DNA from: a virus
Strand: one strand, 5' to 3'
Virus record (IMG/VR): IMGVR_UViG_3300030104_004642
Location: 51,003 to 115,002 of that record
Length of the DNA: 64,000 nt
Translations under genes and position numbers: made by a program
Notes under the pieces: generated by a model
Told to the model about the DNA's origin: nothing
The model's input: the letters and a program-made list of their open reading frames with translations, nothing else
The model's database searches: none
In this document: one piece after another, positions 2,911 through 60,516 of the stretch
Layout of the letters: each line of letters starts with the position of its first letter
Numbering within the stretch: the stretch's first letter is position 1

Positions 2911-3341
2911 CCTATTCCTGAGGTGAAACGTAAAAATTCTATTGAGTTTTTAATTTGATATGTTCTATTAGTTATCTGTTTAAGTATTTCTTCCAAATAC
3001 CTTAACATAGTTTCATAGTAGTCAATCTTTAGCGAAACTCCTGAGAGTTTCTCATCTGCATCCAAATATTTTTGCATAGTTTCCTTATCCCTAATTTTTT
3101 TAGGAAAGGGATTCTCAACATATACTTCTGGTTCAGCTTTACCAGAAAAATATTCATAGCGTTCGTGTCTGATGTTTTTTCTCTGTTGTTCTGCTTTCTT
3201 TCTCAGCAGATAAATGTTATTATATATCTCATAATATTTAGAGTGTAGAACTGGAATATTCAGGGACTCAGTATGAAGATTATCTGGGTCCATCTTTGCA
3301 TCCCTTTCCCACATCTCTTGAATCTTATCAAGAGTGATCAT
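2907..3341 (-). CDS. uvsY: UvsY recombination mediator
   Basis: ESLNIPVLHSKY, YLDADEKL and RTYQIKNSIEF motifs; synteny. Confidence 0.93.
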   Translation of the reverse strand: MITLDKIQEMWERDAKMDPDNLHTESLNIPVLHSKYYEIYNNIYLLRKKAEQQRKNIRHERYEYFSGKAEPEVYVENPFPKKIRDKETMQKYLDADEKLSGVSLKIDYYETMLRYLEEILKQITNRTYQIKNSIEFLRFTSGIG

Positions 3342-3934
3342 ACAAATCCACTTCCCTTAACAATAGTATAATTCAAATACTTAAATGAAACCTGAGCAGT
3401 AAAGTATTCTGTATCCTGCATTGTAGCATCAAATTGAATGGTTGACAAGGAAAATGGGAACATATCCTGAAACTTCACCTTGAAATTTTCATTCTGCATG
3501 GCATCAAGGATAGTCAATGTTCCATCTGAAAAGAGGTTCATTGTTCCACTATTATCCCTTACTGTACCAACCTTCTCATCCTGAAACTCGTATATTTCTT
3601 CAAGACTCTCAGGAAAACCTATACCCCTGATCCAATTCTGAATTTCAATATAGTTTTGAAGTTCTTCATCAACAAGAAAATTAAGTGTAAGATCCTCAAA
3701 ATCAATAATCTCACCAGGCACAGGAATATCCCTCAATCCAGCGGTTGGTTGAATTGTGGTTCTCAAAGTCATACCAGGTATATTCACAGCATTTCCAAAG
3801 AATGATACCTTTGGTGCCCTTGCTATTGAAAATCTAAACCCTTGTGGTTGTAAAAAGTTTCTATTTTGAATAGGGGGTACACCAACAACTGCTGGTGTGC
3901 TCTGGGTTGCTTGTCTTGTCCTTACATCAGCCAT
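3338..3934 (-). CDS. gp3: Tail tube terminator / tail completion protein gp3
   Basis: NFLQPQGFRF, FLVDEELQNYIEIQNWIRGIG and FPFSLSTIQFDA motifs; downstream of gp23. Confidence 0.9.
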   Translation of the reverse strand: MADVRTRQATQSTPAVVGVPPIQNRNFLQPQGFRFSIARAPKVSFFGNAVNIPGMTLRTTIQPTAGLRDIPVPGEIIDFEDLTLNFLVDEELQNYIEIQNWIRGIGFPESLEEIYEFQDEKVGTVRDNSGTMNLFSDGTLTILDAMQNENFKVKFQDMFPFSLSTIQFDATMQDTEYFTAQVSFKYLNYTIVKGSGFV

Positions 3935-4013: not shown

Positions 4014-5465
4014 TCACATGAGGTTTTTGACCAGGACTCTTCTGTAGTATCTGTTGCTGTTGACTCTGAGTCTTCCCAGACCCTGAGTTGTGCCTTCTGC
4101 AAAGGGGTTGGCAACCAGACCATATCTGGTCTTGAAGCCAATCTTGGGTTGGAAGGTGTTCTCTCCAACTGCACGTACCATCTGCAGGGGTACATAGGGG
4201 CAGTAGAACAGACCTGCATCATAAGGGGAAGAACCCTTATAACCAACAACATAATACTGGTTACCAGAGTTGCTAGCAGAGTTGTTAGCAGCCAGGTTAG
4301 CAGAATAGGGGTCAATGTAAACTCTGAACTTACCATTGATGGTGCCAGCAAAGGTGTTGCCAGTGTCATCAACATTCAGGTTTGCATTCAGGGCAGGGGT
4401 ATAATCCAGGATACCAGCCATGGTCAGTGCAGATGCTACATCAGCAGAGCACATGACAATGTTGCCCTTTCCTCTTCTTGTTCTTTGAGCGATTGCATTA
4501 GCATCTCTCTCAATTTGGAACAGAAGACCCTTGAACTTCTCAACAGACCATCTGCCATTAGAGTCAACATCCAGGTCAAACTGACCAGCAGTTGCTACAT
4601 TAGAGGCAGCGCCTTGCTCAGCAGACTTGTAGATAGTTCTGATAACTTCTCTGTTGATCTCAGCAAGGATCTCAGTGGAGAGAATGTTAGCAAGTTCTGC
4701 TTCAGCATTCAGGCCATGAATTGCTTTCAGGTCCTGAGCAAGTTCAAGACTGTACTCAGCCTTCAGTGCTCTAGACTTAGCAGTAACAGTGACTTTCTCA
4801 ATAGAGAATGCCATCTCATTGAACTGATTGCCTGTGCCATTGCCCAGGTTCTCAGCATCACCAGTTGCCATGCCCTGACCAACTGTGTAACCAGTTGAAG
4901 AGGCAGAACCAACAGGGTTAAGTACAGAAGGATTATCACCATTCTGTGCAGTAGTACCAAGACCAGCAGCGACATCAGCCATGCCACCAGTCAGGTTGAA
5001 GCCATCATCCTGACCAGAGAAGGCAGAATCAACTTCATTGTAGAATGCTTCAGTACCAGATTGATCAGTGTATCTGGAACGCATTGCAAAGATCAGTCCA
5101 GTAGGACCAGACATTGGCTGAACACCAGCCAGATCATATGCAACCAGGTTAGGCATTGCACGTCTGATCAGGGAGATCAGAACAGGGTCAAAACCAGCAA
5201 CAGGACCAGCAGCGGTTGCATTAGCACCAAAGCCAGCAGTTGTAGCGGGGTTGCCAGTAGGTTGACCAGCAGCGTTACCACCCATGGTGGGCGTTTCCAT
5301 CAGGTTGATACCCTGACTAAACGCAGCTTCTTCTCTCAGAAACTTTTCTTGGTTTTCCAGCAGGACAGCAGTAACAGCTCTTCTATGGTTATCCTTGATA
5401 CCATCAAGACCTTCATAGTCTAGGAGAGGTGCCCACTTTTCCTGCAGATGTTCAGATTGAAACAT
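4014..5465 (-). CDS. gp23: Major capsid protein gp23
   Basis: FDPVLISLIRRAMPNL, GVQPMSGPTGLIFAMRSRY, KSRALKAEYS and FQPKIGFKTRYG motifs. Confidence 0.99.
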   Translation of the reverse strand: MFQSEHLQEKWAPLLDYEGLDGIKDNHRRAVTAVLLENQEKFLREEAAFSQGINLMETPTMGGNAAGQPTGNPATTAGFGANATAAGPVAGFDPVLISLIRRAMPNLVAYDLAGVQPMSGPTGLIFAMRSRYTDQSGTEAFYNEVDSAFSGQDDGFNLTGGMADVAAGLGTTAQNGDNPSVLNPVGSASSTGYTVGQGMATGDAENLGNGTGNQFNEMAFSIEKVTVTAKSRALKAEYSLELAQDLKAIHGLNAEAELANILSTEILAEINREVIRTIYKSAEQGAASNVATAGQFDLDVDSNGRWSVEKFKGLLFQIERDANAIAQRTRRGKGNIVMCSADVASALTMAGILDYTPALNANLNVDDTGNTFAGTINGKFRVYIDPYSANLAANNSASNSGNQYYVVGYKGSSPYDAGLFYCPYVPLQMVRAVGENTFQPKIGFKTRYGLVANPFAEGTTQGLGRLRVNSNRYYRRVLVKNLM

Positions 5466-5510
5466 TTGCTTTTCCTTAAAATGGATTGTTTACAGTTTGA
5501 ATTAATTAAT

Positions 5511-6584
5511 TCAGTTTTGCTTGAAAGCACCCAGAGATCTCAGATAGGTCTCCATGGTGGAAGATGTGGCAGCAGTAGTGCTGTCTACACCCTCAGAAAG
5601 AGTCTGAGTTGAGGTTGCTTTAGCAGCAGGAGTTGATCTAGAGAAGTATGACTCCTTTAGAGTCTCCAACTTTTCACGATATTCGTCTTCACTTTCAAAC
5701 TCTACACTCTCAGCAAGTGAAGCGAGCTTTTCCTTCTGGGTCTCAGCAAGACCTGAGGAAACTTGAGTCAGAACGTCTTGAGCAGAGGACTCAGCGAGTC
5801 TCTTATTCAGACCAATGTTCTTATCAATTTGCTCATTGAGCTTGGTCTCCATGTCATCAAGTTTTTCTACCATGCTTTCCAGCACATCATATTTATCTTC
5901 AGGGATGGTTACATAATGTTCTTCAAAAAGTTCCTTCATGCCTGAGAGGAAACTCTCAGTCATTTCAGATTTAATACCATGTTCTACTGCCAGTTCATTC
6001 TCAGTCATCCACTCTTCGCAGACATACTCGAGATAGGCATCTACTCTTTCTTGAAGTGAGGTCTTGAGTTCTTCTCTTGCCTCATCAAGTTGAGCAGCAT
6101 ATTGTGTTTCCAGGGTTTCCTGGATTTCTTTTACTTTGGAATTTAGAGCAGCTTCAAAGACAACCTTTGCTTTTTCTCTAAACTCCTCAGAGAGTTCTTC
6201 ACCACCAAGGAGAGCATTGACATCTTCATCCATGTCATATGCTTCTGTTGTCTCTTCAGATTCAGCAACTACTTCCTCAGTAGTTACTTCCTCTTCTGCT
6301 ACAACTTCCTCAGTTGCTTCTGCTTCTTCTTTGGCCATTTTCTGCATACCATCAGCTTTTTTGGCACCCTTGTTGACTACATCAGCCACTGTCTTAATCT
6401 TGGGTTCTCTGAGTTTAGCAGAATCATCATCTGCCTTATAATTCTCAGGGGTAGGACCACCAAGATCCTCATAGGAACCTGCACCTGATGAATCCATAGG
6501 GTCTCCAGCCTTAGCACCAGAATTAACCGCAGTTTTGGATTGTGCTGTCTTTACTTCCATTTCTTGTAGATCTCCACGAGACAT
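5511..6584 (-). CDS. gp22: Prohead core scaffold protein gp22
   Basis: Acidic coiled coil with LSEEFREKAKVVFEAA and YLEYVCEEW; between gp21 and gp23. Confidence 0.95.
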   Translation of the reverse strand: MSRGDLQEMEVKTAQSKTAVNSGAKAGDPMDSSGAGSYEDLGGPTPENYKADDDSAKLREPKIKTVADVVNKGAKKADGMQKMAKEEAEATEEVVAEEEVTTEEVVAESEETTEAYDMDEDVNALLGGEELSEEFREKAKVVFEAALNSKVKEIQETLETQYAAQLDEAREELKTSLQERVDAYLEYVCEEWMTENELAVEHGIKSEMTESFLSGMKELFEEHYVTIPEDKYDVLESMVEKLDDMETKLNEQIDKNIGLNKRLAESSAQDVLTQVSSGLAETQKEKLASLAESVEFESEDEYREKLETLKESYFSRSTPAAKATSTQTLSEGVDSTTAATSSTMETYLRSLGAFKQN

Positions 6585-49700: not shown

Positions 49701-52700
49701 GTGATTGGTTTGTAATTAAAACAACCATCACCCTGACCAGTAATATCAAGTACAATGTTATTATCAATGTAATATCTTCTATCAACAGATCCAGTTCCCA
49801 CCTCATAAAGTTTGAAATTATTATCATCAATCTTACCAACAAAGTAATCTGTATTGGTGCTAATACCACCAACTGGTGTGGTCTTCTCCTCATAGCAGAT
49901 TATATCATTAGTATTGTATCCATGGTTCTTAATGGTAAAAATATCCAATGCTGTGCTTATACCAGCAGAGATGATTGCCCTTTCCTGATTTTTATAACCA
50001 GATCCAGGATTTGCAATATTGATGGAACTGATTATCTTTTTCTTTTCAATTGTAGCAATTGATTGCAATCCATTTCCCAGACCATTTAAACTAATAGTGT
50101 TAATACCAGCATCAGCTTCATCAAAACTACCAAAGAGTTTAATTTTTGTACCATCAACAACCTTTGAAAAATACACTGCGTCAGTGGTCAAACCAACAAC
50201 AGGATTTCTCTTTGAGATGTATTGTACCTGTTCAATGTTTCTCAGGTTGTGGAATGTTGTAAATCCAATAATGTCATTTGTAATATCAACACCACCATCA
50301 ATATTATTAAGTGCAATACCTGCTTGGAATGGTATTACATGATCAGTCTTGATTAAGTTTATGAATGCCTGAGCATGAGTTGTTGGATTACCACCAGTGA
50401 TTTTGACAGTTGGAGTATCAATGTAATCAAATCCAGGATTAATAATATTCAGTTCTGACAGGGAACCCTCTACACTTATGGTGCCAGATGCTCCACTTCC
50501 AAAACCATCAGTAATTTCAAGCAAAGGTGGATTGATCACATCATAATCATTACCACCACTTGATACATCAAATGAGTCAATTCCACCATAGAAGATGACA
50601 TCAGATGATTTGTAATTATCAATTTCTACACCATTAATCAGAACACCAGTTTTTCCAGGTTTTGTTGTGAAAGTCCCTGCTTCCTGTGTTGGTTCATCAA
50701 TCTCCCTAAAAATCTTCTGTCCTATCAGATTCTTTTCATAGAATGGGTAGTATGTGAATTTGTTATTAGTAACAGATCCAGCAGGAGTAATGTATTTTTT
50801 ATTCAGTAAATCTGCCCTACTCATTGCCAATCTGATACTGAAGGCATCTATCCTTTGAATAAAATATACACCCTCTTCTACATTAGTGAACTTACTTAAT
50901 TTTGTATCAACAATATCAGGACCACCATCTCCAGATTCAGTGATGGTTGTTACTGTGTTAGCACTATAATAAACAGCATCACCACTGAAGAAACCATGAT
51001 CTCCACTGGATGACAGTGTAATGATATCAAAGTTTGCTGCACCTGTAAAAGAAATTATTTTATCATCACATCTTATCTCATCATCATAATTTGGAATACT
51101 ATCAGATGCTAAGAGATACTTATCTTCCTTGAGATAAACATTTTGAACATTAGCATTGTAATTTCTAATAGAAAGTTTTGTTGAATTACCTTTCAATAAT
51201 TGATTCTCAATAGAGAAACTCTGTGATAATGTTGATGCTGGGATTGTATTACCCAACTCAACATTTATTGATTTACTTGAAACAATGGATGTTACTTCAC
51301 AATTAAAATTAGTGGAAGAATCCTTGTTGGTAAGGACAAGTTTATATCCAGTTTTTAGATGATGATTCTCAAGGCAATCAATCTGATAGATGTTGTTAGA
51401 ACTATTGACAAGTGTGATGTCTGATACTTCTAACTTAAATTTAATATTATAGAACCAATCATTCTTAGAATCATCAACACCAAGGGTTTTTAGACTAATC
51501 CTATCACCCTTACTAAGACCAAAGTTCTTATCAACATACTCAACCTCTTTCAGAGTTGAGAGCAGTCTGAATCTAATCTGACTTTCAGTACCAACACCTG
51601 TGTTAGCATAAGTATAGTCATATTTTCTTACATCAATGGCCTTATCAAAACTATTAGTGGTTGTGGTAACACCAAGAAATTGTGTAAGGTTCTTGTCAGT
51701 GTAGGAAAGGATATTCTCATTTCCAGATGAATCATCAACTGATAACTGACCTGATGTGGGAAAATCAATGGTTGAATCAACATCAAGGAAGGTAGCACCA
51801 ATAGCTACTGTATTCAGAAGTTTTGTTTTTGAGTTAGGTTCAAACTTGCCACGGATTGTTCCATCTACATCAATGTCCCTTTGATACCCAGTATCAATTG
51901 ACATTTGATAGAAATCACCCTCTGCATTTATCTTCTCAACTTTTGTGCAAGTTCCCCTCGCATTAGTTGAATCCTGATAGATGGTACGATTTACAACCTC
52001 TAAGGGATCACCAACATATGCCTCAACAACATAATCCTGACTGACCTTGTATTCAGCATCAGAGGGTCTAATCAGTTGATTGTTGGGTTTTAGTATTTCT
52101 ACATCAACACCATAAATTGCTTTGAAAAGGATCTTGAATGATTCATCAGTTCCTTTTGCCTTATAGAAACTATCTGATCCCTTTACAAAGTTTCTCTGAT
52201 CAAGACCAGTGGCAAGGGTTCTACTCTCAAAACCAGGTGCAATCTGTGTCTTTAACTTATTAAAGAACTCCTGTAAGAACAGGACGTTCAAATTCTTTAC
52301 AACAGCACCCTTCTTGTGTGCTGCTGCCAGTGATGTCTTGAATACCTGTTTATCAGGGATAAGGGTATTAGTGTACTCAGTTACACCACTAAATCCCCTC
52401 TTACAGTTCTCAAAGGTGGTAGCAGTCTTATTTCCGTACTTAATTATCTCATCATCAATCTGAATGATACCATTAGTCTCAGGAAACTCATATGTAAAGT
52501 TGGTATCAGCACTAAGCGTGATGGTATTGCCAATAATTCCTAAGTCAGCACCTAACCTACTCTCTGTTTTAATGGCAGCAAGTTCATCAACCTTGACATA
52601 TTGATCAAGGTTTTCAATCAGATCAAGAGTACCACCCTGTACCTCTTGAGAGATATAATATTCTTGTAAGAAACTAACCAGTAGTGGAAAGTCATCCCTA

Positions 52701-55298: not shown

Positions 55299-56057
55299 TT
55301 ATTGAACATCCTCATATCTGCCATCCTGTGAATGATATGTATCAATGGGATCCTCCAGGGGTTCAATATCCTCCCTCTCCTTGGATGTCTTCCAGAAGTA
55401 TGAATCCTCATCACCAAGTCCCATCCTGTCATGACCATTCTCCACCTGATAGAACTCCGTTGATACCTTAAAGTCAGGCATCTTGGGATTATCAGGTGTC
55501 AGGCTGTTATCATAGATCCTGGTCCTATTATTAGGATACAGGCAATACTGACCGTTATTGAGTTGGATAAGGTTATGTGACTTATGCTCAGAAGGCAACT
55601 CAGAGGTGCTGTAATCAACAATATCAGGGTCCTGGTGGTAGTTGTCTATCGTGCACACATAGGTGCCCTTCTGGATGCCATGGTCCCTTGTGTACACCTC
55701 AAAGTCCATTGACCCAATGAATGCCTTATTAATGGCAACAAGACCATAATCCATACAGTTCCAGAACTGTAGGTTGAACAGGTTCATATCAGGATCAGGT
55801 GTCCTGGGTGATGATACAAATGCACTGATTGGTAATTTATCATACATCGCAGCATACTCAGGAAGGTAGGTCTCAAAATAGAATGCCCTACCAGGTATGC
55901 TCTTTGCTGATACCCACCAACCCCTAACAAACTCACCCCAACCAGAGGTATGGTCAGTGAGATATTCTTTTCTTACATAAACCTCTACATTAGGAAGGTT
56001 ACATATTAAACATGCCATAGAGAACAGAGATTTTTCCGCGCTGTTGTATCTATACAC
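55299..56057 (-). CDS. Conserved hypothetical protein (likely start MACLICNLP at 56018)
   Basis: VYVRKEYL, KSIPGRAFYFE, LQFWNCMDY, EHKSHN and YPNNR motifs. Confidence 0.8.
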   Translation of the reverse strand: MYRYNSAEKSLFSMACLICNLPNVEVYVRKEYLTDHTSGWGEFVRGWWVSAKSIPGRAFYFETYLPEYAAMYDKLPISAFVSSPRTPDPDMNLFNLQFWNCMDYGLVAINKAFIGSMDFEVYTRDHGIQKGTYVCTIDNYHQDPDIVDYSTSELPSEHKSHNLIQLNNGQYCLYPNNRTRIYDNSLTPDNPKMPDFKVSTEFYQVENGHDRMGLGDEDSYFWKTSKEREDIEPLEDPIDTYHSQDGRYEDVQ

Positions 56058-56195
56058 ATAAATTCATAAAAAAATACCCCTCAGAGCATTCCAAGGAGCA
56101 TTATTAAAAAACAACATATGGTGAAGGATACTATAACAGAACAACTGATGATCAGTTGTTTGAGGGTGAATGATGAACCATTACCCCCATGATGT

Positions 56196-56345
56196 TCACC
56201 CCCTGCCTTGTCCACGATCACGCTTCTTAGCAGGTCCCCTGCTGGATGCAGCATACTTTGTGTGCTTCCCCTGTCCCTGTCGTGTCTTCTTGGGTTGGGA
56301 TTCAATGAATACTGCACCCAACAGTGATTTCTTTACCTTTGCCAT
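56196..56345 (-). CDS. Small, highly basic protein (49 aa, not in the ORF track)
   Basis: MAKVKKSLLGAVFIESQPKKTRQGQGKHTKYAASSRGPAKKRDRGQGRG, preceded by a strong SD (AGGAGG) 6 nt upstream. Confidence 0.8.
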   Translation of the reverse strand: MAKVKKSLLGAVFIESQPKKTRQGQGKHTKYAASSRGPAKKRDRGQGRG

Positions 56346-56374
56346 AATTTACCTCCTGTTTCGTATACTCAACC

Positions 56375-57151
56375 TCAGATAACCCTTGTCTTCTCATGTC
56401 CAACCCTGATGCGTGGATCACACCAGATCTCAAATCCTGCCTCAATAGCATCTAAGCAGAATGATACATCCTCCCCACACATATCCTGTACAGCACCAGA
56501 TTCAAAGACCTGCATCTTGGGTGCAAACCATGGATACTTCATCTTCTCATCCTCAAATACACCATTCTGGATCATCACCCATCCAAATCCTGTATAATCA
56601 ACAGTGAATGGTTTCTTCCTATTCTGGATGCTATCAACCATCTCATGATTCATCACACCACCATTATTCCTGAAATCATTCTCCTCCAACCAATGCGCCA
56701 CTGATGTGGTCTTTCCATCCTCTGTACTATACCAACCAGCAGTGATCTCCTTCTCCTCTCCCTCAGCATTCAATGATAGATCACATAACTGCCAGAACTT
56801 CTCAGTGCTGAATACAATGTCACTATCAATCCATAACTGATAATCATACTTCAACTTACCATCCCATGGCACCTGATCTGGTCCACGCAATACATTTGCT
56901 CCCAGACACTTACAACGTGCAAAGTTAACCATGGATGAGTAATCCTGACTGATCTGAATACTCATACCATTCTGTACCATATCAAAGCACAGTTGCACAA
57001 AGTTCTTTAAAAATGTATATGATACACCACGCCCAGGTAGACAGAATACAACAGTCTTACCCTTCATCCTTGCCTTGATGGCATCATAATCCCATTCTGG
57101 TTCCTTCTTCTTTGGGGGCGCTGATGCCTTTACAGTAAATCCTTTTGCCAT
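56375..57151 (-). CDS. Glycosyltransferase-like protein (GT-A fold)
   Basis: WIDSDIVF (DxD), TGFGWVMI, GEDVSFC and VGHEK motifs. Confidence 0.8.
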   Translation of the reverse strand: MAKGFTVKASAPPKKKEPEWDYDAIKARMKGKTVVFCLPGRGVSYTFLKNFVQLCFDMVQNGMSIQISQDYSSMVNFARCKCLGANVLRGPDQVPWDGKLKYDYQLWIDSDIVFSTEKFWQLCDLSLNAEGEEKEITAGWYSTEDGKTTSVAHWLEENDFRNNGGVMNHEMVDSIQNRKKPFTVDYTGFGWVMIQNGVFEDEKMKYPWFAPKMQVFESGAVQDMCGEDVSFCLDAIEAGFEIWCDPRIRVGHEKTRVI

Positions 57152-57174
57152 GATTGATAATTCACTACAATGTC

Positions 57175-57203
57175 AGTTTAGCAGTTTATATAGTCCCTGT
57201 CAA
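57175..57203 (-). promoter_or_regulatory. Sigma70-type promoter for the glycosyltransferase-like gene
   Basis: TTGACA-N17-TAAACT on the minus strand. Confidence 0.7.
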
Positions 57204-57240
57204 CTCAGACCTTTGGTCTTCACTAGTGAGGTAAACCTCC

Positions 57241-57444
57241 CTAGTAGGAACTCTCCTCCCTGGTCCTTAGGGTCTCCACCACCTCATAGGTGATGTCATC
57301 CACATCATACTTAGTATCCAATAACTTCACCATCTCCCTTAATGTATTATACGTATCAGTAAACTTATTCTCATCTAAACAATTATAAACACATTCTCCC
57401 CTCAGGTAAATATGGTAAAATTTTTCTGTGGGAATTTTTTTCAT
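57241..57444 (-). CDS. Hypothetical protein
   Basis: MKKIPTEKFYHIYLRGECVYNCL...EESSY; the track's longer N-terminus crosses a homopolymer run and looks non-coding. Confidence 0.7.
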   Translation of the reverse strand: MKKIPTEKFYHIYLRGECVYNCLDENKFTDTYNTLREMVKLLDTKYDVDDITYEVVETLRTREESSY

Positions 57445-57641
57445 ATAAATCGTTTCTATTTTTGAATTATATAGAGGTATAAAAAAAGAGACCAATATAA
57501 GTCTCAGGGGTATATACTTTTGTAGGTTGCCATAGACCGGTCTTTTTCGTAGGGGGGGGGTCATAATCCTTAGGGTTTACTACGCCCCCCAGGGCACCAA
57601 CGCTTACCCCCATAAACACTGTCATTTTGGATAACACTGTC

Positions 57642-57671
57642 AGTCTACCACATGTGCCCCCTATGTGTCAA
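57642..57671 (-). promoter_or_regulatory. Sigma70-type promoter at the edge of palindrome cluster 1
   Basis: TTGACA-N18-TAGACT on the minus strand. Confidence 0.5.
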
Positions 57672-57674
57672 CCT

Positions 57675-57787
57675 GTGTGGTCCACATAGTAATACTGTGT
57701 GTTACACATAGGTTTGATAAGTATTACTTACTGTGGGCCACATAGATTATATGGGCCACAATAAGTTTTCCTTATTGTGTAACACAT
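57675..57787. repeat. Palindrome cluster 1: five copies of ATGTG(T/G)N(A/C)CACAT-like 13-mers
   Basis: Copies start at 57675, 57697, 57731, 57749 (degenerate) and 57775. Confidence 0.85.
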
Positions 57788-57806
57788 AGGGGTCACACAG
57801 TAGGTA

Positions 57807-57950
57807 TCAGAATTCCAGTGTAATACTGGTGTCATTCTCCACAAGATTCACACCATTATCTGCGTCTGCCTGAATAACATCCAGGATCTGCAAGATCTCT
57901 GACCCAGTGTTACCCTGTGCCAGCATTCCAAGAGCAAGAGTGCGTGTCAT
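57807..57950 (-). CDS. Small hypothetical early protein
   Basis: MTRTLALGMLAQGNTGSEILQILDVI...; has its own sigma70 promoter upstream. Confidence 0.65.
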   Translation of the reverse strand: MTRTLALGMLAQGNTGSEILQILDVIQADADNGVNLVENDTSITLEF

Positions 57951-58049
57951 GATGAAGTAGTTTGTGTTACTTAGTGTGAAATGTGGGCAGTTTATAGTCA
58001 TACCAAGGACTGTTAAAGTTTAAGAGTTATCTGTGTCCTTCACCCTTAT

Positions 58050-58078
58050 ATTATATGACCCCTTGGTGTATCTGTAAA
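58050..58078 (-). promoter_or_regulatory. Sigma70-type early promoter
   Basis: TTTACA-N17-TATAAT on the minus strand. Confidence 0.8.
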
Positions 58079-58115
58079 GGGGCATTGTGCAGGTTCTGAG
58101 AGTGTCTGAGAGGGG

Positions 58116-58144
58116 TTGACATAACTGGGAGTTGATGATAGACT
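58116..58144 (+). promoter_or_regulatory. Sigma70-type promoter reading into palindrome cluster 2
   Basis: TTGACA-N17-TAGACT on the plus strand. Confidence 0.55.
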
Positions 58145-58194
58145 GCACGCTAAAATAACAACACCCAGGTACATTTATTGGACCAATAAAAACC

Positions 58195-58357
58195 ATGTGT
58201 TACACATACTTTTCATGTGTTACATATGCCCCCTATGTGTTACAAATACAGGGGTTCTCATGTGTTACACATAGGATGGATTTATGTGGTCCACATATAT
58301 CTGTGTGGGACACATATGTGTAACACATACATTTAGTGTGGTCCATGTGTAACACAT
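58195..58357. repeat. Palindrome cluster 2: eight copies of ATGTG(T/G)N(A/C)CACAT-like 13-mers
   Basis: Copies start at 58195, 58215, 58235, 58260, 58284, 58303, 58316 and 58345. Confidence 0.9.
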
Positions 58358-58360
58358 AGA

Positions 58361-58543
58361 TTAGGTGATATTTTCCAGACTATTCTCTAGATTCCTCTGC
58401 ATTTGGTCAAGGAAATCTAATCCTTTCACAGTTGCAATCCTCTCATACTCATCAACAATCATTTTGAGATTATCCCTACAAGATGTTGGAAACCTCATCA
58501 GTTCTGTCTTACCTAACTTGGGATACTTTGAGGAGAAAGGCAT
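58361..58543 (-). CDS. Small putative DNA-binding protein (ribbon-helix-helix-like)
   Basis: 60 aa; basic N-arm, KTELMRFP strand, two amphipathic helices; flanked on both sides by palindromes. Confidence 0.55.
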   Translation of the reverse strand: MPFSSKYPKLGKTELMRFPTSCRDNLKMIVDEYERIATVKGLDFLDQMQRNLENSLENIT

Positions 58544-58560
58544 TACTCAGGGGGTCAAAC

Positions 58561-58602
58561 ATGTGTTACACATATTATAGTCTATGCGTAACACATAGTC
58601 AA
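58561..58602 (-). promoter_or_regulatory. Sigma70 promoter overlapped by two palindromic operators
   Basis: TTGACT-N17-TATAAT (58602-58574). One palindrome lies in the spacer (58584-58596) and one directly after the -10 (58561-58573). Confidence 0.8.
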
Positions 58603-58616
58603 CAGGGTGATAAGAA

Positions 58617-58874
58617 TTAGGGCGTAACCTCTCTCAGTAGGATATTGTATTCCTCTGAATTATCATTGAAATAGGATGTTATTTCATCCTGCATATCTGT
58701 CTCATCATACTGATCATAACTCTGAAAGAGTTGATCATATACAATCTCACATAGGGTATCAAGATCCATGGAATCAACAACCCTCTCACAGAAGACTTGT
58801 TTGAGTTTGTTTAGTTGTTCTGAGGTCATCTTATTAGAAAAATGAAGTGAACCTGGCGTAATCATTGTGTCCAT
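58617..58874 (-). CDS. Hypothetical early protein
   Basis: 85 aa, acidic, ERVVDSMDLDTL. Confidence 0.7.
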   Translation of the reverse strand: MDTMITPGSLHFSNKMTSEQLNKLKQVFCERVVDSMDLDTLCEIVYDQLFQSYDQYDETDMQDEITSYFNDNSEEYNILLREVTP

Positions 58875-59128
58875 TGGTTTGTTTTTACAAGATACTTTTT
58901 AATCTCAGTATAAAGGAATTTTTGTAGTTTGGGGTCAGTTGTTTTATCAAGGGCATCATATAACCTTGCTATGTAATCCTTCTCCCTCACCACATTGATG
59001 TTATCCTTGGTTGAGAATCCTAGGTCTTTCAGATTACTTCCTGCCTTTACTTTTGTCTTTCCAAAGTTACCAGTAATGTTGCCTGTGGTTCTGAACTTTG
59101 GTTTGATTTTGGAGAGGTTTGATGTCAT
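58862..59128 (-). CDS. Hypothetical early protein (basic)
   Basis: 88 aa, SKIKPKFRTTGNITGNFG. Confidence 0.7.
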   Translation of the reverse strand: MTSNLSKIKPKFRTTGNITGNFGKTKVKAGSNLKDLGFSTKDNINVVREKDYIARLYDALDKTTDPKLQKFLYTEIKKYLVKTNQWTQ

Positions 59129-59274
59129 TTAGTGATGATGTTTGAGGGTGGGTTTGTGAGTCTTTCCAGTGCTTCATTCCTCTCCTGAATCTTCTGGGTC
59201 ATATCAGAATTCAGCATACTAATCATTAGATTAGCACCTAGGATTGTGAAGATAACAAGTAGACAGATCCTCAT
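59125..59274 (-). CDS. Small membrane-anchored hypothetical protein (49 aa, not in track)
   Basis: MRICLLVIFTILGANLMISMLNSDMTQKIQERNEAL...; ATGA overlaps on both sides. Confidence 0.65.
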   Translation of the reverse strand: MRICLLVIFTILGANLMISMLNSDMTQKIQERNEALERLTNPPSNIITK

Positions 59275-59405
59275 AATTTAATCCTGATTTGTGTTTCTGG
59301 TTTGATGAAATCTGATGCCTCTTGTAACTTATCAGAGGTGAATTGTCTTGCATCATTACTATTCCACAACAGGGCAGCAATGATAACTAGGAGGATGATT
59401 TTCAT
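59271..59405 (-). CDS. Small membrane-anchored hypothetical protein (44 aa, not in track)
   Basis: MKIILLVIIAALLWNSNDARQFTSDKLQEAS...; ATGA overlaps on both sides. Confidence 0.65.
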   Translation of the reverse strand: MKIILLVIIAALLWNSNDARQFTSDKLQEASDFIKPETQIRIKL

Positions 59406-59761
59406 GAGAAGACATATCCATTGGTGAATTCTTTGGTGGTGAATACACTCTTACCATTGATTGCACCAGTGAAAAGTCTCACATACCACTGATAGTTCTT
59501 CTGGAATACTCCCTCACCAGTGATGCAAAATTCAGAACAGAGTGCATTTAGTCTGGATTTTGTGGTGTTTGATTGATACCCACCATCAAAGATCATCACA
59601 GAATCATCCTGAATTTCAGCAATCAAGTTATCATGCAGAAAAACAGAAGTAACAACAACCTCTTTACCATCATTATAGAAATTGATGACTTTAGTGTTGC
59701 CTGATTTCCAGTCAGTTTCTGATTTGATGGCATCAATCATCTGGGTTTCAATCTTTCTCAT
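59402..59761 (-). CDS. Conserved phage hypothetical protein
   Basis: 119 aa, MRKIETQM...DGGYQSNTTKSRLNAL...VFQKNYQWY. Confidence 0.8.
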   Translation of the reverse strand: MRKIETQMIDAIKSETDWKSGNTKVINFYNDGKEVVVTSVFLHDNLIAEIQDDSVMIFDGGYQSNTTKSRLNALCSEFCITGEGVFQKNYQWYVRLFTGAINGKSVFTTKEFTNGYVFS

Positions 59762-59819
59762 GGTTGGTTTGTTGCTTATACTATGGGGACAGTTTGGGGG
59801 TAACTAATAATCTACTTAA

Positions 59820-59942
59820 TTACTTTGTGTAATGAAGTGATGCCTTTGCTGGTCTTTTTGCCTTCAATCTGATAACCTTTGGTTGCAATCCTTCTGCCTT
59901 AAGTGAATCAATTGTGTCAAGCAGTTTGGAATAGGAATTCAT
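59820..59942 (-). CDS. Small basic hypothetical protein (40 aa, not in track)
   Basis: MNSYSKLLDTIDSLKAEGLQPKVIRLKAKRPAKASLHYTK; the only ORF between two 35-bp elements. Confidence 0.55.
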   Translation of the reverse strand: MNSYSKLLDTIDSLKAEGLQPKVIRLKAKRPAKASLHYTK

Positions 59943-60064
59943 TTTGAGGAGGGAATGTTTTGTGGTTCAGTGAAGCAAACCCCCAGAAACAATACTAGGA
60001 GAGAAGTGGGGGGGAGAAGACTGAACCCTTATACTATAAGGACACTTTGGGGGTAACTAACAAT

Positions 60065-60277
60065 CTATGGAAGAAGTTTTGTGGATGATATTATTAACAG
60101 GAATGTGAGCATGATAACAACATCCCATGATTTTGTCCTGATGAAGAATGGCACAGAGATAAAATCACCAATAAATTGCATGATCACACCCATTGATAGA
60201 TTAACATGAAGGATGATAAAATATGCTGTGACCACAAGGAATGACCCTATGATTCTTCCAATAGTATCAACCCTCAT
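60065..60277 (-). CDS. Small integral membrane protein
   Basis: 70 aa, almost wholly hydrophobic, VPFFIRTKSWDVVIM. Confidence 0.75.
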   Translation of the reverse strand: MRVDTIGRIIGSFLVVTAYFIILHVNLSMGVIMQFIGDFISVPFFIRTKSWDVVIMLTFLLIISSTKLLP

Positions 60278-60516
60278 CCAAACATCTGCTCAAATAGGTT
60301 ATCACAATTATCTGCCTGTTCCCTGCGATCACACTCATAATCAATGGCATCCCTCATTGATACCAACTCAATCTGTTTTTGTTTGAGTTTATCCATCTCC
60401 ACATTCAGATCATGGAGTCTGTTGTTAATATCAATCCTGTCCAATCCATTGACAGCAGTTACAGTGTGAACCATGCCATTGATTGTTACTTTTTTGTCTG
60501 AGATGATGTTTGTCAT
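60274..60516 (-). CDS. Hypothetical early protein
   Basis: 80 aa, coiled-coil-like, coupled to the next gene. Confidence 0.7.
   Translation of the reverse strand: MTNIISDKKVTINGMVHTVTAVNGLDRIDINNRLHDLNVEMDKLKQKQIELVSMRDAIDYECDRREQADNCDNLFEQMFG

Follow-up and report, generated by a model that had tools for sequence, protein, structure and literature searches.

The immI region of Salmonella phage P22 encodes two small ribbon-helix-helix (RHH) repressors, Arc and Mnt, that dimerise through an N-terminal ribbon and are autoregulated from operators within sigma-70 promoters, and it carries opposed promoters (Pant and Pmnt) and an antisense transcript, the sar RNA. Omega (pSM19035) and ParG (TP228) show that one small dimer can bind arrays of 7–10 short repeats and control several promoters. 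CopG (pMV158), another RHH protein, recognises a 13-bp pseudo-symmetric element in its own promoter, with cooperative binding by several dimers, and oriE of phage T4 combines an early promoter and short repeats set at intervals with the small early proteins RepEA and RepEB. Here we describe a locus with likenesses to each of these in a 64,000-nucleotide stretch of viral DNA (hereafter, the window; positions 51,003 to 115,002 of IMG/VR record IMGVR_UViG_3300030104_004642), namely an open reading frame (ORF) for a 60-amino-acid protein, ORF60, surrounded by 15 copies of one palindrome (dyad). Sequence comparison and structure prediction indicate that ORF60 is probably a self-repressing small dimeric DNA-binding protein with extra operator arrays. 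The features on which this reading turns are the following, in window coordinates.

58361–58543, minus strand: ORF60, predicted 60-amino-acid dimeric RHH-like DNA-binding protein (from homologues, a monomer model and a homodimer prediction)
58574–58602, minus strand: P1, sigma-70-type promoter of ORF60, TTGACT-17-TATAAT, 11 of 12 hexamer positions matched
58561–58596: putative operator pair, dyad 15 (58584–58596) in the P1 spacer and dyad 14 (58561–58573) abutting the -10 box, over the expected +1
58195–58357: array B, eight dyads and a degenerate one at 58333–58345, between the ORF60 stop codon and the start of the convergent transcript
58116–58144, plus strand: Pas, TTGACA-17-TAGACT with TG before the -10 box, a convergent promoter reading into array B, antisense to ORF60
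57675–57787: array A, five dyads directly upstream of P3, the nearest ending 4 bp from the P3 -35 box
57642–57671, minus strand: P3, TTGACA-18-TAGACT, with conserved hexamers

The ORF60 locus shares with P22 immI a small phage protein with an N-terminal ribbon dimer (predicted for ORF60), operators in sigma-70 promoters, autoregulation (inferred for ORF60) and opposed promoters with an antisense transcript. However, homology to the P22 proteins is undetectable (~1% probability), P22 has single operators where arrays of 5–8 are found here, helix A is 7 residues longer in ORF60, and P22 is temperate, whereas we take the present phage to be a lytic T4-type virus with headful packaging. The ORF60 strand M-R-F-P can be aligned with L-R-W-P of Arc and F-R-M-P of Mnt, an alignment without statistical support. 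Like omega and ParG, ORF60 would be a small dimer that binds repeat arrays beside several promoters, but the omega and ParG repeats are 7-bp heptads or 4-bp boxes rather than 15-bp dyads, there is no sequence similarity, and both act in partition with a ParA ATPase, none of which was found in the ORF60 neighbourhood (55299–60516). A 13-bp symmetric element over the repressor's own promoter recalls CopG, which differs in having a single operator region, in controlling plasmid copy number and in having no distal arrays or convergent promoter. T4 oriE, also from a T4-type phage, resembles the locus in its early promoter, its spacing of short repeats and its small early proteins, but its repeats are direct rather than dyads, and nothing at the ORF60 locus indicates replication. 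What sets the ORF60 system apart from Arc/Mnt, omega, ParG and CopG, to none of which it has detectable homology, is the presence of 15-bp dyad arrays past the stop codon, facing a conserved promoter with no ORF behind it, together with its host genome, that of a lytic T4-type cyanophage, and occasional dyads inside the gene (locus L148). Most cyanomyoviruses do not have the module (tblastn against 50,697 phage records).

The proteins with which T4 reprogrammes the RNA polymerase of its host are missing from T4-like cyanophages (PMC2984593). Literature searches yielded no description of a module of this kind in T4-like cyanophages, and the original prediction for this stretch, made from its letters alone, knew of none at such a place in a T4-like phage. 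ORF60 is most likely a new small repressor and, with its dyads, a known type of switch hitherto undescribed in these ocean viruses.

The 13-bp sequence ATGTGKNMCACAT occurs in six exact copies in the window, against 0.10 expected and a maximum of one in any of 100 shuffles. At up to one mismatch there are 14 copies (1.78 expected), a number that none of the shuffles reached, and a fifteenth (57749) joins at two mismatches. The 15 copies all lie within 57675–58596, in groups of five (57675–57787), eight (58195–58357) and two (58561–58596), and the starts at 58195, 58215 and 58235 are exactly 20 bp apart, so that the grouping and the spacing reported in the original prediction both stand. Its statement that the motif is confined to this place holds for the exact 12-mer core TGTGKNMCACAT, which has no occurrence elsewhere in the 115,002-base contig, but eight further matches with up to two mismatches, weakly symmetric, are scattered through the window. 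The dyad it described is also real but longer than 13 bp. In 101 copies pooled from nine loci the motif is the 15-bp dyad T-ATGTG-NNN-CACAT-(A/G), with the leading T present in 93 of the 101. Nor do its variants always keep the symmetry, as positions 6 and 8 are unsymmetric in, e.g., GGA at 58303 and GGG or GAG in other lineages. Start-to-start spacings of the pooled dyads peak at 20, 23–25 and 13 bp, corresponding to about two helical turns (20–25 bp) and to abutting dyads (13 bp), a pattern typical of cooperative operator arrays. An RNA hairpin or terminator was rejected as the identity of the dyads (5-bp stems, a 3-nt loop and no U run). Host sites of the NtcA, CRP, LexA, PhoB and HLR1 types were also rejected, since their spacing and core do not agree with those of the observed dyads.

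P1 was found as first described, on the minus strand from 58602 to 58574, with one dyad filling its 17-bp spacer and another over the expected +1; the centres of the two (dyads 15 and 14) are 23 bp apart. Given this geometry of dyads and promoter, autorepression at P1 is the expected outcome of binding. A P1-type promoter with a dyad in its spacer was detected in the window and in loci L138, L141, L145 and L128, and in L145 and L128 the spacer dyad is kept as the lineage's own variant. A pair of dyads ~23 bp apart, at about -52 and -28 from the ATG, is present at 18 of 22 homologue loci at up to one mismatch, and the upstream dyads of the remaining loci are spaced differently. At the other end of the gene, a gap of 3 bp separates dyad 13, the last base of which is 58357, from the stop codon (58361–58363), as had been noted. 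This dyad belongs to array B, which has start-to-start spacings of 20, 20, 25, 24, 19, 13 and 29 bp and fills the interval from the ORF60 stop to 44 nt past the expected Pas start. Among 17 close relatives (at least 61% identity, with sequence past the stop), the equivalent of array B has 2–8 copies and starts 7–39 bp after the stop. The equivalent of array A in relatives has 1–7 copies (up to one mismatch; 3–7 in groups 1–2 of the loci) and starts ~450–715 bp past the stop.

Of the homologue loci, with 39–100% identity to ORF60, three come from viral contigs and twenty from metagenomes, one metagenome locus duplicating a viral one, which leaves 22. The Tara contig L129 is 100% identical. Dyads lie directly upstream of the ATG in all 22, bearing out the suggestion that homologues should co-occur with local palindromes. 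Most of these loci also have an array just past the stop, and a second one further on where enough sequence follows. The two most distant members for which sequence beyond the stop is available showed no downstream array, and in L128 one dyad lies inside the gene. Loci found by the motif alone and holding several copies proved to be the same cassette, cut at contig ends, while one 14-mer, when searched for in viral contigs, gave for the most part isolated chance matches and a search for related loci with family member P0011 returned nothing. The phages S-B43 and Bellamy have neither ORF60 nor its dyads. Three viral contigs (L102, L042 and L112) start inside or just after dyad arrays; assemblers therefore appear to break there, and array copy numbers from short contigs are perhaps unreliable. 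In L148 (221–391), the member with 39% identity, three perfect dyads lie within the coding sequence, where they are read as HVLHI, CVTH and YVLHI, and the 914 bases that follow yielded no dyad. C(V/G)TH is present at the inter-helix turn of several further members of the family, and intragenic operators may be common in the family.

The centre of the dyad changes with the sequence of the predicted ORF60 strand. Proteins with the strand T[EK][LIN]MR or TKLIR (Leu, Ile or Asn at residue 15) pair with the centres TAA/TTA in 142 of 154 dyads, those with TVKTR (Lys15) with GGG in 16 of 23 (the others mostly GAG or GGT), and those with TER[MV]R (Arg15) with GGA in 8 of 9. T13 and R17 of the strand are nearly invariant, as are the dyad arms. 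The palindrome thus co-varies with strand residues, as the original prediction had proposed to check, the centre triplet following residue 15 in three classes. The pairing of Lys or Arg with G-rich centres is chemically sensible. Residue 15 adjoins the two-fold axis of the predicted ribbon, since residue 16 pairs with 16', and would read the dyad centre, with T13 and R17 matched to the invariant arms. We infer that ORF60 recognises the 15-bp dyad T-ATGTG-NNN-CACAT-A.

ORF60 belongs to a small family, with eight close relatives in a collection of 5.8 billion proteins and 27 clusters at E ≤ 0.001, nearly all of ~60 amino acids, in a profile search of 1.84 billion representatives. G11 is invariant across the family and K6, Y7, T13, R17 and P19 are nearly so. 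Since tblastn with ORF60 and two distant members (P0014 and P0022) gave no match in the 50,697 phage records, no cultured carrier of the family is known. The AlphaFold2 monomer model, built on a 26-sequence alignment (predicted local distance difference test, pLDDT, 84.5), is extended over residues 1–19, with the strand at about 13–19, and has helices at 20–40 and 42–58 and G41 at the turn between them, thus following the RHH topology (strand, helix, turn, helix; ~45–60 residues with a turn Gly). When modelled as a homodimer, the protein scored 0.89, against 0.00 for the best of three controls, with 100% agreement of contacts between runs and a partner pLDDT of at least 90. In calibration, 20 of 30 proteins with structures solved as pairs of one chain attained this mark, as did 1 of 23 with structures solved as single chains, counts that are only a rough guide here because our own alignment was supplied. 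The closest inter-chain contacts (16-16, 15-17, 18-14, 19-13 and 20-13) describe a predicted antiparallel two-stranded N-terminal ribbon, the hallmark of RHH proteins, and the predicted dimer takes the form that had been anticipated.

Assignment to an RHH family, which was also anticipated, failed in profile and fold searches. ORF60 and nine relatives matched no Pfam or PHROG family, and none of the ten matched the RHH Pfam families (RHH_1 PF01402, Arc PF03869 and relatives) at E ≤ 10. With ORF60 as query, nothing significant was found by sequence profile in the PDB (E ≥ 0.078) and no match in the ESM Atlas, and hhalign probabilities of 1.1% against P22 Arc and 0.3% against Mnt were not significant. 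The best hits of four Foldseek and VIA-align fold searches with two monomer models (Z of 5.4 and 5.3) were unrelated helical hairpins; the RHH antitoxins MazE6, TacA1 and CdbA scored Z of 3.2–3.5 only, with monomers as the queries. As neither the monomer fold searches nor the comparison with Arc and Mnt were significant, we refer to ORF60 as RHH-like by prediction and not as a proven member of the superfamily.

Pas and P3 belong to a ~1.1-kb cassette that aligns with its relatives (81% identity to L126) and contains four promoters, the hexamers of which are conserved while the spacers drift; for this reason we consider Pas, P2 and P3 to be real promoters. The remaining parts of the cassette, and the first gene after it, are as follows.

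58050–58078, minus strand: P2, TTTACA-17-TATAAT, micro-ORF promoter, with conserved hexamers and a variable spacer in four aligned loci
57807–57950, minus strand: micro-ORF of 47 amino acids (MTRTLALGMLAQGNTGSEILQILDVIQ...), conserved at the protein level while its DNA diverges
57480–57636, minus strand: P3 transcript, a putative ~150-nt leader or small RNA with an intrinsic terminator (stem 57488–57505 and T run)
57241–57444, minus strand: conserved gene of 67 amino acids (PHROG 2626, E = 1.8e-13, residues 46–107 of a longer ORF), the first after the cassette

The hexamers of Pas are kept, with a freely varying spacer, in all 11 loci of groups 1–3; the promoter has no conserved ORF behind it and stands back to back with P2. 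It also occurs in Bellamy (L150 2846–2874). Bellamy has Pas, P2 and P3, and S-B43 has P3, although both phages are without ORF60, and these promoters are therefore older than the ORF60 module, which was laid over them. The -35 flank and spacer of P3 hold dyad-like half-sites (GACACAT, CACATGTGG), a stretch that in L102 takes the form of two full dyads. The second array of L141 is placed differently, ~380–497 bp beyond the stop codon, where it occupies the leader that separates P2 from the micro-ORF. The earlier description of a self-contained module is supported, as ORF and dyads co-occur in all 22 loci and the P1 spacer dyad keeps its position, but it missed three further conserved transcription units with which the arrays line up.

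Under the favoured reading, in which ORF60 represses itself, the host sigma-70-type RNA polymerase would fire the near-consensus P1 early in infection, and accumulating ORF60 would fill the spacer dyad of P1 and the one over +1 and so switch off its own synthesis. ORF60 would also coat the eight sites of array B, between its own stop and the conserved convergent Pas. Array B, once coated, could block polymerase in both directions, i.e., Pas transcription running antisense into ORF60 and the upstream early genes, and read-through from P1. On array A, which has five sites and both abuts and overlaps P3, its binding would repress the ~150-nt P3 RNA together with the genes that follow. We infer this role of the arrays, as a roadblock or insulator between P1 and Pas combined with repression of P3, with lower confidence than the autorepression. 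A further and more doubtful step, which we put forward tentatively, is that ORF60 and its arrays form a protein gate on the ancient ORF-less promoters Pas and P3, which many T4-like cyanophages appear to share, such that the block and release of antisense transcription would time early-gene shut-off.

Several observations weigh against this account. No more than three independent specificity classes underlie the co-variation, and sequences that are related have part of their history in common. No sequence search ties ORF60 to the RHH or any other family (Arc/Mnt probability ~1%), and its helix A, of 21 residues, exceeds the classical RHH length. The arrays do not overlap the core of Pas or of P2, which makes an effect of the arrays on these two promoters conjectural, and their position shifts between relatives.

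A close variant of the self-repression reading, which we regard as unlikely, holds that the arrays are mainly decoys that soak up ORF60, P1 being shut only once the 13 higher-affinity sites per genome are full, with a delay that would scale with phage DNA copy number. The 13 array sites against two promoter sites fit such a timer, as do the free variation of array copy number among relatives (2 to 8) and the P1 spacer dyad, which is always imperfect (ATGCGT or ...ACATAT) while many array copies are perfect. Pure decoys would not, however, need the fixed placement relative to Pas and P3 that the arrays have in most loci, and the L141 array in the micro-ORF leader is at a roadblock-like place. 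Another possibility is that ORF60 is merely the regulated gene and a host factor or other phage protein binds the dyads, the TGTG/CACA arms resembling CRP-type half-sites and GTTACA resembling the cyanobacterial HLR1 element. This is contradicted by the co-variation of dyad and ORF60, the dyad centre changing with the ORF60 strand sequence, and we consider it very improbable. The arm spacing TGTG-N3-CACA also disagrees both with TGTGA-N6-TCACA and with the direct repeats of HLR1, TTACA is missing from variants such as TGTGGTCCACA, and phages without ORF60 are also without the dyads.

The iteron-like origin and centromere-like site offered in the original prediction were not supported, as the GC skew does not turn here, neither a ParA nor an initiator gene lies close by, and relatives differ in how many arrayed dyads they have and where. 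In an origin, the dyads would be iterons and Pas or P3 would give an activating or priming transcript, as at T4 oriE. Two conserved promoters do read into non-coding DNA, a ~68% A+T stretch of 44 bp separates the Pas start from the first dyad, the G and C runs of the P3 RNA could stabilise an RNA-DNA hybrid, and cyanophage Syn9 has been predicted to have a single theta origin (PMC2984593). But the cumulative GC skew falls steadily through the locus without a turning point, a weak test since all genes are on one strand here, and dyad number, spacing and location differ among close relatives, the L148 dyads even lying inside coding sequence. Bellamy and S-B43 retain P3 (Bellamy also Pas) without ORF60 or these dyads, and no initiator or helicase-loading domain was found in the 60-amino-acid protein, so we judge an origin quite unlikely. 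We give scarcely any credence to a centromere-like or DNA-organising site, at which ORF60 would coat the arrays as omega and ParG do and segregate, compact or mark the genome, even though the arrays hold 5–8 closely spaced sites and these two RHH proteins are well known both to bind short-repeat arrays and to repress promoters. The region 55299–60516 contains no ORF for a ParA-type Walker ATPase and no such Pfam or PHROG match, the phage is presumably lytic with headful packaging, and the best conserved sites are those inside the promoter.

T4-like cyanophages kill a large share of ocean Synechococcus and Prochlorococcus. To our knowledge they lack T4 Alt, Mod, AsiA and MotA, and we know of no phage-encoded repressor assigned in them. 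At the ORF60 locus a candidate regulator and its sites can be named together, and the family offers a natural specificity series, with Leu, Lys or Arg at residue 15 against TAA, GGG or GGA centres. Two conserved transcription units without coding sequence, Pas and the P3 RNA, have come to light here as well, and are of interest in cultured phages such as Bellamy and S-B43. If ORF60 does gate Pas and P3, this would bear on how cyanophages without Alt, Mod, AsiA and MotA exit the early phase.

The window is the right 64 kb of the 115,002-base IMG/VR contig, which represents ~60% of a genome, and judged by its genes the source is an uncultured T4-like cyanophage. Genes near the cassette match Kyanoviridae Gp96, DUF7326, PHROG 2626 and a glycosyltransferase, and the glycosyltransferase gene has 76–80% DNA identity with Synechococcus phages S-B43, S-B05, Bellamy and S-T4. 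Every gene from 39 kb to 64 kb is on the minus strand, in the order small early-type genes, cassette, baseplate genes. The placement at the early/late boundary was accordingly right, because early-type small genes precede the cassette and baseplate genes follow it. A mobile insertion was rejected, the region being syntenic with the small genes at the same place in all relatives.

Within the cassette, the micro-ORF is conserved in L126, L102, L112, L128 (two copies, 3265–3408 and 3455–3625) and L141, while an upstream ATG at 58001 is not. Its homologues in cultured phages are QDH50506 of S-B43 (L127 5650–5802; recognised by eye in the ORF list), gp102 of Bellamy (L150 2501–2644) and one in S-SCSM1. 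Members have 30–56 amino acids and share the core GN(T/N)G-x-(E/Q)IL-x-IL(D/E)-x-I, the C-terminus being free, and no Pfam or PHROG family was assigned to them. A toxin-antitoxin pair was rejected, as the micro-ORF is served by a separate promoter, 360 bp away, and S-B43 and Bellamy carry it although they have no ORF60. On the opposite strand, Pas, a sigma-70-type promoter, keeps its hexamers, along with the first ~35 bases of its transcript, in 11 loci from metagenomes and in the cultured phage Bellamy, and the Pas transcript is a candidate conserved antisense RNA of cyanomyoviruses, opposed to all neighbouring genes.

The pairing of the P3 terminator stem is kept through changes on both sides in nine loci. 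The P3 RNA had no Rfam match and its fold was not better than shuffles (z = -1.1), and Rfam and tRNA scans of the region gave nothing relevant. The transcript carries two GACAGTG repeats and a C run of 7–13, upstream of the PHROG 2626 gene, and may be a leader, an attenuator or a small RNA. P3 units lie at 5090–5289 (minus strand) in S-B43 (L127) and at 3185–3400 in Bellamy (L150), and PHROG 2626 homologues occupy the same place in both of these phages and in L126, L102, L112 and L128.

A diverged ORF60 paralogue of 58 amino acids (MRPLKYAHLGEMRLQRVP...) is encoded at 2489–2716 of L128. Upstream of it are two copies of the 17-bp sequence AGTTATGTTAACAAAAC at a distance of 33 bp, with 1 nt between the end of the second copy and the ATG, and this pair of protein and repeat would be another specificity within the family. 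L128 also has an ORF for a GIY-YIG-type endonuclease (3–959). In S-B43 (L127, MN018232), the micro-ORF is flanked by other dyads of the GGCC-N-TATATG and CTTATATAAG types (5590–5645 and 5860–5925), one such dyad lies within the P3 spacer near 5265–5285, and an unannotated ORF of 83 amino acids (5312–5563, minus strand) has a winged-helix-like motif at its end. This may be another system of regulator and sites, located where the ORF60 cassette lies in the window. A fourth promoter-like site of the window, TTGACA-17-TAAACT (57175–57203, minus strand), immediately precedes the glycosyltransferase gene and has an embedded TATAAAC. It recurs almost unchanged in L138, L143, L145 and L146 and may consist of overlapping early and late promoters.

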